Assembly: GCA_045220575.1 (NCBI GenBank)
Contig: JBGUVX010000032.1
Location: 4,055-68,054, forward strand
Reading direction: 5' to 3'
Source: Bacteroidaceae bacterium
GTDB lineage: Bacteria > Bacteroidota > Bacteroidia > Bacteroidales > Bacteroidaceae
DNA: 64,000 nt
The notes under the pieces are model-generated. The model made no database searches. It was not told where the DNA came from and saw only the letters and a program-made list of their open reading frames with translations. Shown here piece by piece: positions 16,006 through 63,619 of this stretch. Numbering within the stretch: the stretch's first letter is position 1; each line of letters opens with the position of its first letter. The translations under genes were made by a program, and so were the position numbers.

Positions 16006-16013
16006 TAACTTTG
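16006..16013 (+). promoter_or_regulatory. -7 box TAACTTTG for the ATP-grasp-like operon
   Basis: Perfect TAnnTTTG, 8 nt before the ATG at 16022, which implies a very short or absent leader. Confidence 0.5.
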
Positions 16014-16021
16014 TGCTCGTT

Positions 16022-17020
16022 ATGTTACCTGCACTGTTCAATCCGTCGAACGACATGGCTCTGGCAGCAAACGTGCGCCAGTACTTTCCGCCACAACGCA
16101 TCCAGCAGATGGAGGACGACCTTGCCGACCTTTCACGATTCTGGGATTCAGGTCCTTGGGGATGGAGCTTAGCCACGAAGCAGCGCTATCACCGCATGGG
16201 CGTTCCTGCCGACCAGTTGCCAAGCGACGAATGGCTCGCCGAGGTGCGACGGCTGTCGAGTCGAGAGTTCGGGGTAGCATATTATCAGAAGTTGACCCCC
16301 CTCTTATCCCCCCATGATGGAGGAAGAAATCCCTTATTACCTAGTCAAGTACAATACATCAAATCCATTCCGCAGGAACTTTTTCTCTCCCCATTATGGG
16401 GGAGCAGGAGGGGGCTCATTATTAAAGCTCCCTGGTCGAGCAGCGGGCGAGGGAATATTATTATCGGCAAAGAAATTGCCGACCACGCTACATTGCAGCA
16501 CATTGAGCGAATCATACGCGAGCAGGGAGGAATAGTTGTGGAGCCGTACTATGACAATAAGGCACTGGACTTCGCGACGGAATTCGAAGTCACCGATGAC
16601 GGTACGGAATTTGTAGGGTATAGCGTATTTTATGCCGATGAAACGGGGCATTATGGTGGTAACTTAGTAAAGAGTCAGGCTGAACTACTTTCTATTATCG
16701 ACTTGCCACAGCCGCTGCTTGACGAACTCATTGCATTTCATCGTCGAGAGCTTGGCAAATTAGCATATCGCGGTCCCGTGGGAATAGACATGATGCGACT
16801 TCGCGACGGTCGAGTGCATCCTTGCGTGGAAGTGAATTTCCGCATGACCATGGGACTGTTGGCCATCCTCCTCCATCGGCAGGGTATAACCGACGACCAA
16901 CTTCTGGCCGGCCATCCCGACCAAGGATTCTCAGCCTCCATCAAACAGGGAATCCTCGTTATCGACTATAAACCATTATCGAAAAAGCAACTCCAAGAAG
17001 AACTAAACAAAAGAAAATGA
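16022..17020 (+). CDS. ATP-grasp-like hypothetical protein carrying an in-frame palindromic insertion
   Basis: The track start at 16013 is GTG and lies inside the -7 box; the ATG is at 16022. ATP-grasp-like blocks are KAPWSSSGRGNIII, IVVEPYY and GPVGIDMM...CVEVNFRMTMG. Residues LSPHDGGRN...LSPLWGSRRG are encoded by the 16295-16416 palindrome pair. Confidence 0.6.
   Translation: MLPALFNPSNDMALAANVRQYFPPQRIQQMEDDLADLSRFWDSGPWGWSLATKQRYHRMGVPADQLPSDEWLAEVRRLSSREFGVAYYQKLTPLLSPHDGGRNPLLPSQVQYIKSIPQELFLSPLWGSRRGLIIKAPWSSSGRGNIIIGKEIADHATLQHIERIIREQGGIVVEPYYDNKALDFATEFEVTDDGTEFVGYSVFYADETGHYGGNLVKSQAELLSIIDLPQPLLDELIAFHRRELGKLAYRGPVGIDMMRLRDGRVHPCVEVNFRMTMGLLAILLHRQGITDDQLLAGHPDQGFSASIKQGILVIDYKPLSKKQLQEELNKRK
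16295..16416. repeat. Cargo-less C-run/G-run palindrome pair embedded in frame in a CDS
   Basis: CCCCCCATGATGGAGG (16308-16323) and the perfect 17-bp palindrome CTCCCCATTATGGGGAG (16387-16403), followed by CAGGAGGGGGCT. Same end motifs and same order as the birA cassette. Confidence 0.7.
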
Positions 17021-50635: not shown

Positions 50636-50677
50636 AATATCTTAATTCTTAACTCTTAATTTTTAATTCTTAATTTG
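50636..50677. repeat. Heptamer tract (TAATTCT words), inverted relative to 49876-49920
   Basis: AATATCT TAATTCT TAACTCT TAATTTT TAATTCT TAATTTG. It encodes the birA C-terminal KLRIKN plus stop, and the whole birA-pyrH spacer. Confidence 0.85.
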
Positions 50678-51891
50678 TATTCCACTTCCTTAAAGCCATA
50701 GCTTCGTTTTCTGCCCGTTTCATCGACAATTATCAGGTGCCCCGCAGGCTCCACATCCACGATGGTGCCCACGAACTCCCCATCCTTGTCGCGAAACGTA
50801 TGCTTCTCGCCGCGACGATAGAGTTGATCGAGGTACATCTCGTGCAGTTCGTCCAACCGCCCCTGTTCCGTCCACTCGTAGTAGTGGGTAAAGTTCTCCA
50901 CCACCCTTTCAAGGACGAAGCGACGTTCCACCTCCTCGCCCACAATCTGTACCAACGACACAGGTTCTGCCATTCGTCGCAGGCCGTCCTGTTGGGTTCT
51001 GTCGAATGTGAACTCCGTCTGGTTAATGTTGATGCCCACGCCCATCACCGAGCGCTCTATCCTGTCGCCCCTCAGTTCGTTCTCGATGAGCATTCCACAT
51101 ATCTTCCTGTCGCCCCAATAAATATCGTTGGGCCACTTGATTTGAAGCCCCCCACCATCTCCCCCCATAATGGGGGAGGGTTGCAAAGCCACTTGAAGAG
51201 TACGACACACGTTTTGTGTATTACCAATTATTTCTTCGTTCGTGAAACGTATAACTCTGAACCCCATACGTTGTAGCGAGGCTGTTCTATCGGCATCACA
51301 TTCCTTTTGCTCCGAGTGTTTATGGTAGCCACCATCTATTTCAACTATCAAGTTGTGCTGAAGGCATACGAAATCAACTATATAGTCTCCAATAATATGT
51401 TGTCTTCTGAAGGAAACCCCCAGATTTTTATTTTTTAATATTTCCCACATAGCATTCTCTGCCTCTGTGGGATATTGTCTGTTTTCTTTTGCGAATTCCT
51501 TCAGCAGTTTGTATCTGTCTGGCGAGGCTGTCTTATAGGCATCACGTCCATTACTGCGGGCAAAGTCCCCCCTCATGGGGGGATTTAGGGAGGCCTGGAT
51601 GGCGAGGGAAAGGACCTCGCTGAGGACGAACATGCGGTCGGCAGGGATGTGGCGAGGGTGCAGGAGCAAGCTGAACAGCAGGTTCTGCCCAGGCTGCGAC
51701 TCCCACCGGTTGCTGCCCGCCCCGCGACCAGCCGTCTGGTATTCCGCCGTCACCAGCGTCAAGCGTCGCTCCGGCCCCACAGGGCGGTAGTTGCGCAGGA
51801 AGTCGTTCGTGCTCGTCACCTCCCCCAGCTCCACCATACGGAACTCGGGCGAGTCGTCCAGACAAAAATGTCTATCCAATTTATAGTCCAT
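50656..51891 (-). CDS. birA: Biotin--[acetyl-CoA-carboxylase] ligase interrupted in frame by a ~145-aa DUF559 endonuclease cassette
   Basis: Starts at the ATG at 51891 (MDYKL), downstream of the -7 box at 51929-51936. BirA blocks are TAEYQTAGRGAGSNRWES and, after the insert, IKWPNDIYWGDRKICGMLIE, GVGININ. One uninterrupted reading frame runs through the insert. Confidence 0.85.
   Translation of the reverse strand: MDYKLDRHFCLDDSPEFRMVELGEVTSTNDFLRNYRPVGPERRLTLVTAEYQTAGRGAGSNRWESQPGQNLLFSLLLHPRHIPADRMFVLSEVLSLAIQASLNPPMRGDFARSNGRDAYKTASPDRYKLLKEFAKENRQYPTEAENAMWEILKNKNLGVSFRRQHIIGDYIVDFVCLQHNLIVEIDGGYHKHSEQKECDADRTASLQRMGFRVIRFTNEEIIGNTQNVCRTLQVALQPSPIMGGDGGGLQIKWPNDIYWGDRKICGMLIENELRGDRIERSVMGVGININQTEFTFDRTQQDGLRRMAEPVSLVQIVGEEVERRFVLERVVENFTHYYEWTEQGRLDELHEMYLDQLYRRGEKHTFRDKDGEFVGTIVDVEPAGHLIIVDETGRKRSYGFKEVEYKLRIKN
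51147..51593 (-). mobile_element. Palindrome-bounded DUF559 (Vsr-like PD-(D/E)xK endonuclease) cassette inserted in frame in birA
   Basis: The encoded segment PPMRGD...YPTEAENAMWEILKNKNLGVSFRRQHIIGDYIVDFVCLQHNLIVEIDGGYH...RMGFRVIRFTNEEI...SPIMGGDGGGLQ matches DUF559 as I recall it. Its boundaries are CCCCCCTCATGGGGGG (51567-51582) and CCCCCATAATGGGGG (51162-51176). The interior is visibly AT-rich compared with birA. Confidence 0.75.
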
Positions 51892-51928
51892 AACCTGATG
51901 GCAACGCGATGCCGATATCAAAACCACA

Positions 51929-56968: not shown

Positions 56969-57649
56969 ATGAAAGTTATAGTATCGAAGGAAATAGAACA
57001 GGTGTGCCCCGATTTCGTGGGGGCCTGCGTGGAGGCACAAGTGGTGAATTCGCCCTATTGTCAGGAGCTTTGGCAAGAGATAGAGGTGTTGGGCGAGCGC
57101 TTCCGCAGCGAACTGACAACGGAGTCGCTGAAAGACATAGCCAGCATTGCCGCCACCCGCAGGGTATACAAGGCCTGCGGCAAGGACCCCTCGCGCTACC
57201 GGCCCGCCTCAGAGGCACTGATACGGCGCGTGCTGCAAGGCAAGGAACTCTATCAGCGCGACACGCTGGTGGACTTGGTGAATCTGGCCTCCATAGCCTA
57301 TGGTTACAGCATCGGAGGCTTCGATGCCGACCGCTTCGTGGGCGACACGCTGACGCTGGGCATCGGACGCGAAGGCGAACCCTATGAGGGCATCGGACGG
57401 GGTATGCTGAACATCGAGGGACTGCCCGTCTATCGCGATGCCATGGGCGGAGTGGGTACTCCCACCAGCGACAACGAGCGAACGAAAATGACGCTCGACA
57501 CCACACATCTGGTGGTGCTAATCAACGGATACGACGGCAACGAACAGCGCGTCCGTGAGAATGCCGAATACATCCAGCAGCTTCTTCGCAGGTATTGCCA
57601 AAGCGACGGGGGAAGTTATGAAGTGTACAGAAGCCCCTCTTCTAATTAA
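56969..57649 (+). CDS. B3/B4 tRNA-binding-domain protein (PheT-related)
   Basis: Re-called from the ATG at 56969 (MKVIVSKEI). The track ORF from 56750 would overlap the GH2 gene. RRVYKACGKDPSRYRPASEAL and LVDLVN are typical of the family. Confidence 0.75.
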   Translation: MKVIVSKEIEQVCPDFVGACVEAQVVNSPYCQELWQEIEVLGERFRSELTTESLKDIASIAATRRVYKACGKDPSRYRPASEALIRRVLQGKELYQRDTLVDLVNLASIAYGYSIGGFDADRFVGDTLTLGIGREGEPYEGIGRGMLNIEGLPVYRDAMGGVGTPTSDNERTKMTLDTTHLVVLINGYDGNEQRVRENAEYIQQLLRRYCQSDGGSYEVYRSPSSN

Positions 57650-59701: not shown

Positions 59702-60415
59702 TTATTTGCTGAGGAATCTTGTATCGAGAAAAGAGCGGAAGGCATCTTTGTAGAGATCGCCGATGGGCAGGCGGGTGTTGGCATCCAAGATAACGCGGTT
59801 CTTGTCGACCTCCTGTATCTTGTTGAGGTTGACGATATATGAACGGTGGATACGCATGAAGCCGTCGGGCAGGTACTCTTCCATCTTCTTCATCGACAGC
59901 AGGGTGACGATGGGTTTCGGCTCGCCTTCCAGCCAGACCTTCAGATACTCGCTCATGCTCTCGACATAGCGGATGTCGCGGACAGAGACCTTGACGATGC
60001 GTGAATCGGCCTTCAGGAAAATATCGGAACCATCCCCCTCCCCACGCTGTGACGGCTGGGGGGAGAGCCTTTCCCTCAACCGATTTGCCGCCCGCTGGAA
60101 GTCCTGCAGGCCAAAGGGCTTCAGCAGATAATCGACAGCATTCACGCGAAAACCCTCGACAGCGTACTCCGAGTAGGCCGTGGTGAAGACAACGAGGGGC
60201 GGCGAGGCGAGCGACTTCACGAAGTCCATGCCGTTGAGGTCGGGCATGTTGATGTCGCAGAAGATGGCATCGACTGTGTCGTGCTCCAGGAACGAACGGG
60301 CCTCTATGGCGCTCTGGCACTGAGCGGCGAGTTCGAGGAAAGGCACCTTGCTGATGTAGGTGACGAGTTGTCGGAGCGCCAACGGCTCATCGTCAATAGC
60401 CATGCAACGTATCAT
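59702..60415 (-). CDS. LytTR-family response regulator
   Basis: REC domain (MAIDDEPLAL...DINMPDLNG) plus a LytTR domain (IRYVESMSEYLKVWL...HRSYIVNLNKI). The linker LSPQPSQRGEGDGSD is encoded by a C-run/G-run inverted repeat. Confidence 0.9.
   Translation of the reverse strand: MIRCMAIDDEPLALRQLVTYISKVPFLELAAQCQSAIEARSFLEHDTVDAIFCDINMPDLNGMDFVKSLASPPLVVFTTAYSEYAVEGFRVNAVDYLLKPFGLQDFQRAANRLRERLSPQPSQRGEGDGSDIFLKADSRIVKVSVRDIRYVESMSEYLKVWLEGEPKPIVTLLSMKKMEEYLPDGFMRIHRSYIVNLNKIQEVDKNRVILDANTRLPIGDLYKDAFRSFLDTRFLSK
60033..60067. repeat. Solo C-run/G-run inverted repeat in the response-regulator linker
   Basis: TCCCCCTCCCC-N14-GGGGGGAGAG on the + strand. It is read in frame as LSPQPSQRGEGDG on the gene strand. 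Confidence 0.45.
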
Positions 60416-60427
60416 GCGGGTGAAGGA

Positions 60428-61561
60428 TTAAGGGTGGAGGGGAATGACAAGGTTTACGGTAAAGACGCTGGCCTCGTCGTGTATGCTGAGGGTGTAGTTG
60501 TTGCCGTAGAGCAGGTCGAGGCGCTTGCGGACGTTGACAAGCCCCACGCCGCCCTTCTCCTCGTTGGGTTTCTCTGCCTTCGAGTTGCGGCAACGGAACT
60601 GCAGCCTGCCGTCTTCGACAGCCACCTTCACCTCGATGAACGAATCGCGCTGATAGCTGACGCCGTGCTTGAAGGCGTTCTCGATGAAGGTGATGAGGAT
60701 GAGTGGTGGTATCTGGTAATTGGGCGCGTCCATAGGCAGTTCGAGGGTTATCTTCACCTTATCGGTATAGCGCAACTGCATCAGTGCGACATAGTGGCGG
60801 ATGAAATCCAGTTCCTGAGTGAGGGGTACACCTTGTTTGTTGCCCTCATAGAGCACGAAGCGCATCATCTTCGACAGTTCCACAATGGTTTCCTTCGCCT
60901 GTTCCGGGTCGATATCGACGAGGGCGTGGATGTTGTTGAGCGTGTTCATGAAGAAGTGTGGATTAATCTGATAGCGTAGGTACTCCAGCTGCTGCTCCAG
61001 ATTCTCGTGCTCCAACTGTGCCAGCCGCCTGCGGTCGTCGCGGCTACGGAAATAGCCCTTGATGCCCAGATTGGCGCCGAACATCAGTAGCAGCACCACT
61101 ATGGCCATAATGTCGTGCTCGCCGACTATTAGCGGCGGACGGCGGTCTTGTCCGAAACGCGGCGGTTCGGGTCGTTCAGGAAAGTCCGAATCGTGTGAGG
61201 GCTCATGAAACTCGGGTCGATTCATTTCGCGGGAGGGACGCCCGTCGGGTATCTGCGGTCGGCTGTTGCACTGATAGAGCGTGAAGGTGGCAACGATGAC
61301 AGCCATTACGGAAAAGTATGCCGCACGCTTGTGTTTGTGCACCAACAGCGGTGCCAGCAGGAAATTGTGGACGAGGAACAGCAGCAGGTAAATCGCGAAC
61401 TTACGCCACACGACGAACACCTCGAACCAGTCGAATACGGCATTGGCATCGCTGGCCATGCGCACATACAAACTCAGCAGCGGGGATGCAAAGAGCAAAC
61501 CCCACACTGCCAAGTATAGCATATTTTCCTGTCGCGACTGGTGTTTCATCAGATGTGTCAT
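60428..61561 (-). CDS. LytS/YehU-type sensor histidine kinase
   Basis: N-terminal TM helices, His_kinase block (LRYQINPHFFMNTLNNIHALV) and a HATPase_c-like C-terminus. Confidence 0.85.
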   Translation of the reverse strand: MTHLMKHQSRQENMLYLAVWGLLFASPLLSLYVRMASDANAVFDWFEVFVVWRKFAIYLLLFLVHNFLLAPLLVHKHKRAAYFSVMAVIVATFTLYQCNSRPQIPDGRPSREMNRPEFHEPSHDSDFPERPEPPRFGQDRRPPLIVGEHDIMAIVVLLLMFGANLGIKGYFRSRDDRRRLAQLEHENLEQQLEYLRYQINPHFFMNTLNNIHALVDIDPEQAKETIVELSKMMRFVLYEGNKQGVPLTQELDFIRHYVALMQLRYTDKVKITLELPMDAPNYQIPPLILITFIENAFKHGVSYQRDSFIEVKVAVEDGRLQFRCRNSKAEKPNEEKGGVGLVNVRKRLDLLYGNNYTLSIHDEASVFTVNLVIPLHP

Positions 61562-61628
61562 TTCAATTTTTTGAAGTTCTTGCTAGCAAGCGTCTCTTCG
61601 AGCCGAGCGAATGAGCTTTACTCCATCT

Positions 61629-61657
61629 CCTCCCCTCGGGGAGGTCGGGAGGGGGCT
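61629..61657. repeat. Intergenic copy of the C-run/G-run palindrome end motif
   Basis: CCTCCCCTCGGGGAGGTCGGGAGGGGGCT. Compare 16387-16416, CTCCCCATTATGGGGAGCAGGAGGGGGCT. Confidence 0.7.
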
Positions 61658-61675
61658 GTTTCTCATTTTCGAGTC

Positions 61676-63619
61676 TTACCACCAAGGGCCTCCACCACCG
61701 CCGGGGCCTCCGCCGCCTCCGCTGTTACCTGTGTAGGAGGAGAGGCTGACGGACGAGCCGCTGCTGACGGTGGGACTGATGTTGCCCATGCCGCCGAAGA
61801 TGCTTGTGCCGCCCGTGACGGTGACGCCAGACTTCAGCGTGGGTTGCGATGCACCGCTGACAACGATTCCGCTGCCGCCGCTCGACGGGGTCTTGAAGGC
61901 GAAAACGTCAGAGCCGACGGTGATGCTGTACCAAGTGCTCTTGCTCCACGACGAGGACTGATAGCAGCTCTGTGTGAGGCTGCTGCCGTTCTCCAGGCCG
62001 CCAATGGCGATGATGGTGCCGCCCGTGACGTAGAGTTTGTAGCCGCCCTCGGTATTGGCATCGAGGCCCACTTCCGGCGAACCCTTGCAGATGGCATAGA
62101 CGAGGCCGCCCTTGATGTACATGTTGCCGTTGGAGTCGAGGCCGTCGTTGCCCGTTGAGTAGCCCATGACGTAGCCGCCGCTGACGGTGAGGTGACTGGC
62201 CGCGTTGATGGCATCGTCGCTGGCCTGAACGGAAACCTGTCCGCCACTGATGTCAATGGTTCCCTTCGATTCCAGTCCCTCGTGGTTTGCCGAGTAGACG
62301 GAGAGCGTGCCGCCCGTGATGACGATGTTGCCGTCGGCCTTCACGCCCTTGGCATATTTGTGGCTGGAGCTCGAACTGCCGCCGCCACCGGGCCGTGCGC
62401 CGCCACCGCTGGACGAACCGTAGTTCGAACCTTCGGCACGAGCTGTGATGTTGCCTCCGCTGATGGTAAGGGTTCCGTCGGAGTTGATAGCACGTCCGCC
62501 CTGTCCGCTGTTGGTCAGCGTCAGTGTGCCGCCAGCGATGTTTATGGCCTTGTCGCTTTTCAGGCAGGCACTGGCCGAGAGGTCTGAGGAGTTGGTCGTA
62601 TCCACGCCACCCTTGTTCGTCACCTTGACGACTGTCTCGCTGCTGCTTTCGTTTATGAAGAGTTCGCCCGTGGCCTTGATGCCCTTCGAGGCCGTTGCCG
62701 TTGTGCTCACGTTGAGCGTGCCGCCCTGGATGTAGATGTTGCCGCTGTCCTCATCGTCGTGGTCGGTGGTCTCGCCCGTCGAGGTGTCGCCGTCCAGGTC
62801 GCACTGGATGCCGTCGTCGCCCACGCCGCTGATGCTCACCGTGCCGCTTTCCATCAGGAAGTATTCGTTGCACGAGATGCCGTCGCCCACGGCCTTCGTG
62901 ATGTTCAGCACGAGGTTCTTCACGGCGATGTAGTCACCGCTCTTGATGCCGTGCTTCGTGTTGCCCACGATGTTCAGCGTGCCGTTGCCCTGCAGTTGCA
63001 ACTGTCCCTTGCTGTAGATGCAGGCCTTCTGCTCGCCGCTGGCGCCGTCCGTCAGCGTGTTCACGGTGTTCTTCTTCGCACTCAGTTGTATGCGCTTGCC
63101 GTTCGTTATGCTGATGGCAGCGCCGCTGGGGTTGGTCAGCGTCAGGCCGCCCAGCGCGATGCTGCACTTGTAGGAACCCGTGAGGGAGAACTCGCCGTCG
63201 GTGGTCGTGCCGCTCAGGGTGTAGGTTATCTCGTCGTCGTCCACAGCTTCAGTATTCGTCTGGGCGATGCTGACGTGCGCTCCGCTGACGGTTGGCGTGA
63301 CGTACTGAGCCACATTGCCTGCCACCGTCACCGTTGCCGATGCGCCGTCGTAGGTCACCGTCACTGCGTTGTCCTTCACCGTTGTGTTGTCAACATCCAT
63401 TGCATCCACCTCGCTGAGTGCGAAGGTCCTGCCCATGATGGTCACCGACTCACCGTTGTTGTAGGGCATTTCGCCCGTTTTCGAGGCGGGGAACTGGTAA
63501 ACCACATTTCCCGTGCGGACGTTCAATGTCTGCGCCCCCGCTGTCAGTGTCAGCACGAGGGCTATAAAAAGAACAAATATCTTTTTACCCATTAGGAGAA
63601 AAATCATCGAATCCTTCAT
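61676..63619 (-). CDS. Cthe_2159-type beta-helix 'carbohydrate-binding domain' protein with a Gly/Pro-rich C-terminus
   Basis: 647 aa. Signal peptide, repeated GGT(L/I)x(V/I) and GxGTLNI coils, ending ...GNSGGGGGPGGGGGPWW. ATGA overlap with the upstream small gene. Confidence 0.7.
   Translation of the reverse strand: MKDSMIFLLMGKKIFVLFIALVLTLTAGAQTLNVRTGNVVYQFPASKTGEMPYNNGESVTIMGRTFALSEVDAMDVDNTTVKDNAVTVTYDGASATVTVAGNVAQYVTPTVSGAHVSIAQTNTEAVDDDEITYTLSGTTTDGEFSLTGSYKCSIALGGLTLTNPSGAAISITNGKRIQLSAKKNTVNTLTDGASGEQKACIYSKGQLQLQGNGTLNIVGNTKHGIKSGDYIAVKNLVLNITKAVGDGISCNEYFLMESGTVSISGVGDDGIQCDLDGDTSTGETTDHDDEDSGNIYIQGGTLNVSTTATASKGIKATGELFINESSSETVVKVTNKGGVDTTNSSDLSASACLKSDKAINIAGGTLTLTNSGQGGRAINSDGTLTISGGNITARAEGSNYGSSSGGGARPGGGGSSSSSHKYAKGVKADGNIVITGGTLSVYSANHEGLESKGTIDISGGQVSVQASDDAINAASHLTVSGGYVMGYSTGNDGLDSNGNMYIKGGLVYAICKGSPEVGLDANTEGGYKLYVTGGTIIAIGGLENGSSLTQSCYQSSSWSKSTWYSITVGSDVFAFKTPSSGGSGIVVSGASQPTLKSGVTVTGGTSIFGGMGNISPTVSSGSSVSLSSYTGNSGGGGGPGGGGGPWW

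Follow-up and report, generated by a model that had tools for sequence, protein, structure and literature searches.

The window analyzed here, 64,000 nucleotides of a Bacteroidaceae bacterium (assembly GCA_045220575.1, contig JBGUVX010000032.1, positions 4,055 to 68,054), contains an ATP-grasp gene (open reading frame (ORF) 16013..17020, plus strand) in which two G/C-rich palindromes are translated as part of the peptide LSPHDGGRNPLLPSQVQYIKSIPQELFLSPLWGSRRG. Direct reading placed the first palindrome, CCCCCCATGATGGAGG, at 16308-16323 and confirmed the peptide, both as quoted in an earlier note on this DNA. The second, CTCCCCATTATGGGGGAG, described in that note as a perfect 17-bp palindrome at 16387-16403, is 18 nt long with five G and occupies 16387-16404; CAGGAGGGGGCT follows directly and ends at 16416. 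What the note had overlooked is that the first palindrome, with the C-run upstream of it, is the same unit in reverse orientation; its reverse complement reads CCTCCATCATGGGGGGATAAGAGGGGGGT. The stretch 16295-16416 consists of two separate units around native host sequence. They are inverted with their tails outward, as are the ends of a nuclease-encoding cassette in the birA gene of the window; the note had already remarked that order and orientation agree with that cassette. It is probable that the two are independent inverted units resembling repetitive extragenic palindromic (REP) sequences, read through in protein loops, and that they belong to a repeat family that also bounds cassettes encoding a DUF559 nuclease.

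The two units in the ATP-grasp gene have the same parts. Unit A (16295..16323, minus strand) is composed of the complement of a tail, C-rich ACCCCCCTC (16295-16303), a TTAT spacer and the partly decayed hairpin CCCCCC-ATGAT-GGAGG (16308-16323), and is translated as TPLLSPHDGG. A better-kept copy lies at the same site in orthologue P0017, with 26 of 29 nt identical in a gene whose third codon positions are only 41% identical. Unit B (16387..16416, plus strand) has the hairpin CTCCCC-ATTAT-GGGGGAG, a CAG spacer and the tail GAGGGGGCT, is translated as SPLWGSRRGL and shares 28 of 32 nt with the copy in orthologue P0005. The unit is C/G-rich and free of stop codons, and translation therefore runs through it and yields a linker rich in Pro, Ser and Gly.

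The host protein gave nothing significant when its sequence was compared with Pfam, NCBIfam and PDB, and was identified by fold comparison only. Its AlphaFold model (mean predicted local distance difference test (pLDDT) 86.4, predicted template modeling score (pTM) 0.87) has an ATP-grasp fold according to Foldseek (best PDB match E 8e-10), which bears out the label that the earlier note had given to the gene. Each unit lies in a length-variable surface loop of this enzyme. The 10-residue blocks that include the unit-coded residues (91-110 and 121-130) have mean pLDDT values of 65-77, whereas residues 111-120 between them reach 90 and are modeled as a strand and a helix. The 63 bp that encode this interior, RNPLLPSQVQYIKSIPQELF (16324..16386, plus strand; 21 residues), aligned with the conserved host segment LLPCQARFCTSL..E in 120 of 120 homologues, the unit-free ones included, and carry the host motif LLPxQxx[F/Y]..S.P.

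At the DNA level, both sites show insertion/deletion polymorphism among orthologues. The site of unit B is filled in P0034 and P0005 and empty of the unit in P0017 and P0004; in all, P0034 has B alone (CTCCTCCCCATTATGGGGGAGGTTGGGAGGGGGG), P0017 has A alone, P0005 has both and P0004 has neither. Units at orthologous sites are 88-97% identical in DNA, as compared with 63-71% overall and 41-51% at third codon positions for the surrounding genes. What is conserved in the units is the DNA sequence, not the encoded peptide. Constraint acting on the DNA or the RNA may be the cause, or else concerted evolution or recurrent re-insertion. The earlier reading of the palindromes as translated-through insertions is supported in this respect: they vary in presence among orthologues and are not conserved protein sequence.

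Where orthologues have no unit, the loop is often filled by another repeat. At the unit B site of P0017 (locus L123, gene 1501-2508) there is a different palindromic insert, read as FRSATTGDACVAQRSK, between direct repeats AATGTTCAATGTTCAAT, and this peptide is found in several homologues (P0017-P0019, P0022 and P0024). An AT-rich short repeat resembling TTTTCAATTTTCAATTT occupies loops that hold G/C units elsewhere in L125 (1501-2472) and in L129 (birA of P0272, about 319-1155); it is read as FQFSIYNFQF or EFLIFNFSLLI, and one of its carriers is a BirA with 90% identity to that of the window. At the unit A site, homologue P0038 carries an alternative loop expansion, a tandem peptide repeat APCSLPP/APCPLSP of about eight copies. 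The loops that host units look like general hot spots for short repeats.

Is the motif more than a chance run of G and C? The composite pattern CTCCCC-N2-8-GGGGAG-N3-5-GRGGGGGCT had two exact matches in the window, one of them unit B, against 0.00 expected, with no occurrence in any of 100 shuffles. The view that there is no element, only chance G/C-rich matches or conserved Pro/Gly protein motifs, could appeal to the simpler motifs: C4-loop-G4 hairpins showed no more than a mild excess in the window (5, where 2.4 would be expected), and GGAGGGGGCT with one mismatch was not enriched (7 against 3.9). Against it stand the shuffles, the confinement of the composite motif to one phylum (below), its absence from most orthologues and its conservation as DNA rather than peptide. 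The alignments of orthologues together with the DNA comparison rule out a conserved protein motif, and base composition does not account for the composite motif. We regard this view as refuted by the shuffles, the species scan and the conservation at the DNA level; its probability is negligible.

The composite pattern was run over one genome per species from 185,579 species, and at least 120 stretches were returned. Among the matches listed, 118 of 120 were from Bacteroidota. By a rough estimate, about 10 matches would arise by chance over the whole collection. The carriers listed include Prevotella and Bacteroidaceae metagenome-assembled genomes (MAGs) from the rumen, Mucilaginibacter, Chitinophagaceae, Ferruginibacter, Draconibacterium and Mesonia, and several of the loci come from a single genome, such as L003, L036, L105 and L106 of Mucilaginibacter CTOTU41436. 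The 120 loci listed hold 133 exact copies with sharp ends and unrelated flanks; no direct repeat was found in the flanks of the 133 units. A further 100 copies occurred in 82 viral stretches of IMG/VR. These results establish a real, lineage-specific repeat family in Bacteroidota. Its unit of 28-32 nt comprises a C-rich arm, a loop of 2-6 nt, a G-rich arm, 3-5 nt and a G-rich tail that mirrors the 3' arm, with the consensus hairpin CTCCCC(C)-loop-GGGG(G)AG followed, after the 3-5 nt, by the tail GRGGGGGCT. Rfam gave no match at gathering thresholds in the window or in five loci, and neither the unit nor any DUF559 cassette with such units at its ends was found described in the searchable literature, whose coverage was incomplete.

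In all units, for example at 16387-16416, the tail GAGGGGG is the mirror of the 3' arm GGGGGAG of the hairpin, which itself comes after the CTCCCCC arm. With pyrimidines followed by two purine runs, the unit might fold into an intramolecular triplex or into alternative hairpins. Within the tail lies GGAGG, a motif like that of Shine-Dalgarno sequences; Bacteroidota are not known to rely on Shine-Dalgarno pairing.

A profile hidden Markov model (HMM) made from the 133 copies was run against the window with nhmmer. It matched an intergenic unit (61625-61661, E 3e-6) and unit B (16385-16420, E 4e-5), and more weakly unit A (16297-16328 in reverse, E 0.034) and the 5' end of the birA cassette (51566-51588, E 0.073). 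The 3' end of that cassette scored below these four. The earlier count of four copies in 64 kb is therefore replaced by five units or hairpins at three places. One of the four, proposed to lie in the linker of a LytTR regulator (60033-60067), did not survive: the HMM was silent there even at E<10, the folding z was +0.5 relative to shuffles and the linker is not longer than usual. Nor could it be retained as a decayed unit, as the linker is hypervariable in all 120 homologues and the 13-residue version of the window is no longer than common forms. A few LytTR orthologues carry a genuine reverse unit in the linker (SPLQLPLKGE). The sequence CCCCGATTTCGTGGGGG at 57007-57023 is a C4/G5 hairpin without a G-rich tail; since the HMM did not detect it, it is probably unrelated to the family.

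The units do not favor genes. Only 44 of 133 (33%) were spanned by a long stop-to-stop ORF, as compared with 68% of random 30-mers in the same loci, which indicates that units are tolerated in genes rather than preferred there. The proteins concerned are diverse, and units within ORFs occur in all three reading frames and both orientations, so that the preference for in-frame insertion suggested in the earlier note is not seen. Of 80 intergenic units on chromosomes, 31 lie within 40 nt past a stop, and 27 of these 31 share one orientation. Viral contigs show the same position after stops, with a shared orientation in 32 of 40. The intergenic unit of the window, CTCCCCTCGGGGAGGTCGGGAGGGGGCT (61630..61657, plus strand), which had been noticed before as a motif at 61629-61657 and was recovered by both the exact pattern and the HMM, follows this rule: it is located 19 nt past the stop of the minus-strand gene 61676..63619, upstream of a histidine kinase gene (60428..61561), and has the common orientation relative to the upstream gene. 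No canonical intrinsic terminator or terminator-like U-tract was found at this unit. Some viral contigs carry six or more units (among them IMGVR_UViG_3300030047_000019, the source of loci L132, L145, L151 and L179). On any one viral contig the units nearly always point the same way, in contrast to the tails-outward pairs of chromosomes.

The fixed position and orientation past stops, in chromosomes and viral contigs alike, raise the possibility that the units are DNA or RNA signals selected by the host, such as 3'-end or stability elements or sites of pausing or recombination, which are not spread by mobility and which DUF559 merely targets. Nucleotide conservation far above that of synonymous sites and the co-orientation on multi-copy viral contigs fit such signals. 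A third of the units, however, lie in ORFs in any frame and either orientation, their presence at orthologous sites is patchy, the intergenic unit of the window has no terminator-like U-tract and no Rfam family matches, all of which count against this view. We consider host signals alone an unlikely explanation; the idea is compatible with REP-like mobile units because REPs are also both mobile and functional.

A second regularity concerns pairs. Among neighboring units within 700 bp of each other, 32 of 36 pairs have their tails outward. Pairs of this kind, with or without DUF559 between them, are a real and widespread architecture. The spacers, 8 to 576 bp long, are related neither to one another nor to DUF559, so that they were rejected as DUF559 remnants and as one MITE family (miniature inverted-repeat transposable elements). 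Some pairs, such as one at the SpoIIE site of L097, are true insertions in places where relatives carry DUF559. In the GltB gene of L002, the spacer between the units is native coding sequence, as in the window. L063 (GltB, reverse strand) and L002 (7400-7900) are from rumen Bacteroidaceae MAGs that carry a unit at a common site of glutamate synthase; at the upstream GltB site, one MAG has a reverse unit and the other a different hairpin (CCCCTCTCCCGTGAGAGAGGGG).

On the reading that goes back to the earlier note, 16295-16416 would be a single MITE, a DUF559 cassette that has lost its cargo, inserted in frame in one piece. The tails-outward layout shared with the cassette, the 32 of 36 neighboring pairs arranged alike and true insertions such as that in L097 speak for this reading. 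Furthermore, as RNA the two units of the window pair together as one long stem (-50 kcal/mol, z -4.15). What contradicts it is the interior, which is host sequence, conserved in homologues that have neither unit and modeled as structured. In addition, the units occur singly in orthologues, other pairs have interiors that resemble neither one another nor DUF559, and L002 is another case with a host interior. The single-MITE reading is largely refuted by these observations, and we give it very little credence. Of the broader idea of a MITE-plus-autonomous-element family, one part stands, as a shared repeat family does form the ends of the DUF559 cassette; the part that made 16295-16416 one element does not. 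The four pairs in other orientations lead to an expectation of one or two tails-outward pairs by chance, and these could be the pair of the window and that of L002.

Then, what does the family do when a gene lies between the units? In the window, the birA ORF (50656..51927, minus strand) contains the peptides PPMRGD...SPIMGGDGGG, as the earlier note had stated, and Pfam places DUF559 (PF04480, E 1e-33) midway through the biotin-protein ligase, with DUF559 and BPL_LplA_LipB as the sole domains. The frame of DUF559, a Vsr-like PD-(D/E)xK nuclease, runs in frame within birA (51183..51566, minus strand), and the closest solved structure is PDB 3HRL, an 'endonuclease-like protein' (E 2e-18). At the 3' end of the cassette is a terminal unit (51146..51180, minus strand), CCCTCCCCC-ATTAT-GGGGGGAG-ATGGT-GGGGGGCT, read as PSPIMGGDGGG, which differs very little from the solo unit that occupies this site in P0289 (32/34 nt identical) and P0307. 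The 5' end (51567..51596, minus strand), read as ASLNPPMRG, has the hairpin CCCCCC-ATGA-GGGGGG (51567-51582) and, ahead of it, a C-rich tail in degenerate form, AGGCCTCCCTAAAT; the corresponding tail of P0121 and P0307, AGCCCCCCTAAAT, is the exact complement of the 3' tail.

The cassette lies in a length-variable loop just before KWPNDIY. The loop is empty in distant orthologues and holds a solo unit in several others; in the window and P0121 it holds the cassette, flanked by hairpins on both sides. In P0307 the solo unit is a symmetric tail-hairpin-tail, AGCCCCCCTAAAT-CCCCCCATTATGGGGGG-AGATGG-AGGGGGGCT. Outside the insert, P0298, with a solo unit and no cassette, shows 96% DNA identity to the filled P0121, and the difference between the two amounts to exactly 405 bp. 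This is a clean and recent presence/absence of the cassette on top of a solo unit. The loop of the solo hairpin matches that of the 5' hairpin in P0298 (ATGAT) and that of the 3' hairpin in P0307 (ATTAT), so that a solo unit could be either the landing site of the cassette or the footprint of recombination between its hairpins. The 16-nt hairpin found on both sides of the cassette could be a target duplication or part of the element.

When the window is compared with P0121, the DUF559 frame shows a proportion of nonsynonymous differences (pN) of 0.175 and a proportion of synonymous differences (pS) of 0.75, the latter saturated, similar to the BirA part. The low pN despite saturated pS indicates that the nuclease is under purifying selection as a protein. 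In the model of BirA, the ligase fold is confident, the insert forms a separate domain and the linkers coded by the hairpins have pLDDT below 50. No intein (Hint) domain was found by Pfam and no intron by Rfam in the cassette, and the insert appears to stay in the mature protein.

Besides the window, DUF559 lies between inverted units, or adjoins one, in five loci (L045, L093, L118, L058 and L034), in each case sharing the orientation and reading frame of an ORF of 441-1288 codons. When the 145-residue cassette was used for an exhaustive search, 24,626 matches at E below 1e-3 were obtained among cluster representatives. About 40% of the best 150 of these relatives lie in the middle of large proteins, with hosts that include LeuRS, IleRS, a DegT aminotransferase, epimerases, SpoIID, SpoIIE and a glycosyltransferase. 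A report on programmed inversion that mentions DUF559 (PMC9881135) was judged irrelevant to the present element.

Taken together, the observations are best accommodated by independent REP-like units that also serve as the ends of DUF559 cassettes, and a mechanism may be proposed. A REP-like unit has spread through Bacteroidota genomes, and the copies that enter genes would persist only in loops able to accommodate about 10 additional residues. The unit may also serve as both the ends and the landing pad of the in-frame DUF559 cassette. The nuclease, in this proposal, would recognize or nick the hairpin and probably drive the spread, and repair over the 30-nt ends that units have in common would bring about the copying into other units. 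A wider hypothesis, which we put forward tentatively and hold to be somewhat less likely than its negation, is that DUF559 is the engine of a previously undescribed selfish element of Bacteroidota. Such an element would be a non-spliced nuclease domain of about 400 bp, in frame, that uses the 30-nt hairpin as ends and landing pad, colonizes surface loops of many essential enzymes and is kept in the mature protein. Its seeds or footprints would then be the units that occur singly and in pairs, those at 16295-16416 among them.

Several points weigh against these proposals. To judge from the strong tails-outward bias, the members of a pair arise together, and this is a poor fit with two independent insertions in the ATP-grasp gene. 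Close relatives (identity above 90%) distinguished by one unit alone were not found, so that there is direct evidence for the mobility of the cassette only, and not for that of solo units. Only 5 of the 120 listed genome loci have DUF559 next to a unit, and most units thus have no nuclease nearby. The role suggested for DUF559 is read from association alone, and the genic and intergenic classes were called from stop-to-stop ORFs, not from gene calls.

How does the family compare with known systems? REP sequences, with BIMEs and REPINs, are imperfect palindromes of 20-40 nt in many copies, mainly extragenic and downstream of genes, and often form inverted doublets (PMC3116915, PMC3733652). In REP-RAYT systems, where RAYT denotes the REP-associated tyrosine transposase, the associated gene is flanked by two inverted units, and copies occur occasionally in ORFs (PMC3116915, PMC3733652). 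The present units are alike in being palindromes of 28-32 nt with many copies (133 in the 120 loci listed and five in 64 kb), mostly extragenic and past stops, with inverted doublets common (32/36), and in DNA sequence they stay close to their consensus. A GTAG or CGTC tetranucleotide at one end is a criterion for REPs (PMC3733652). Neither tag is present in the 133 copies, which start with CTCCCC and end with GGGGGCT, and the G-rich tail that mirrors the 3' arm is likewise unlike REPs. The flanked gene differs as well: in the window and the five loci it is the DUF559/Vsr-like PD-(D/E)xK nuclease instead of a Y1 HUH transposase (whole genomes were not searched for RAYT), it is itself often in frame within host genes, and the phylum is Bacteroidota.

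If the link to DUF559 holds, a role would be provided for a very large family of unknown function (24,626 matches), analogous to that of RAYT for REPs, and a second, mechanistically different repeat-plus-enzyme system would stand beside REP-RAYT. It would also explain the recurrent Pro/Gly-rich insertions and whole inserted domains in housekeeping proteins of Bacteroidota, which matters when genes of gut and rumen bacteria are annotated, their protein families aligned and their structures predicted. The empty and filled pair of birA together with a defined 30-nt unit makes the idea directly testable in vitro.

The likeness to a MITE lies in terminal inverted repeats that are common to a coding element, the DUF559 cassette, and to cargo-less doublets. 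The differences are the host interior of 16295-16416 and the unrelated interiors of the other doublets. DUF559 is not a known transposase. Insertion sequences that target REP hairpins, such as IS1397 and ISKpn1, offer another parallel. ISPpu9 is a further insertion sequence of this kind (PMC8450116). In these and in the DUF559 cassette alike, a coding element sits on or within a palindromic unit, which makes the repeat a landing site. The insertion sequences have a DDE transposase and inverted repeats of their own and are intergenic, whereas the cassette of about 400 bp has a nuclease domain of 110 residues only and is in frame.

The fold of DUF559 brings to mind the Vsr-like (EDxHD) homing endonuclease family, which includes I-Bth0305I (PMC3239194, PMC2677866). 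As in homing endonucleases, small nuclease genes of a Vsr-like fold reside in conserved housekeeping genes and show presence and absence at the same site (birA, 96% DNA identity). Unlike inteins and introns, the insert has no splicing module and appears to be kept in the mature protein. The cassette is flanked by a dispersed repeat rather than a unique target, so that many different genes are hit.

Translated palindromes are known from the Rickettsia palindromic elements (RPEs), which occur in frame in unrelated protein-coding genes where the fold tolerates them (PMC10969869). The present family resembles them in that palindromes are translated in diverse genes (44/133 in long ORFs) and that the residues coded by the units of the window lie in model regions of lower confidence. 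RPEs measure about 100-150 bp and are confined to Rickettsia, and no enzyme is known to go with them, whereas the units described here are about 30 nt, mostly intergenic and linked to a nuclease. In its behavior the family is both REP/REPIN-like and RPE-like, but it lacks some defining features of each.

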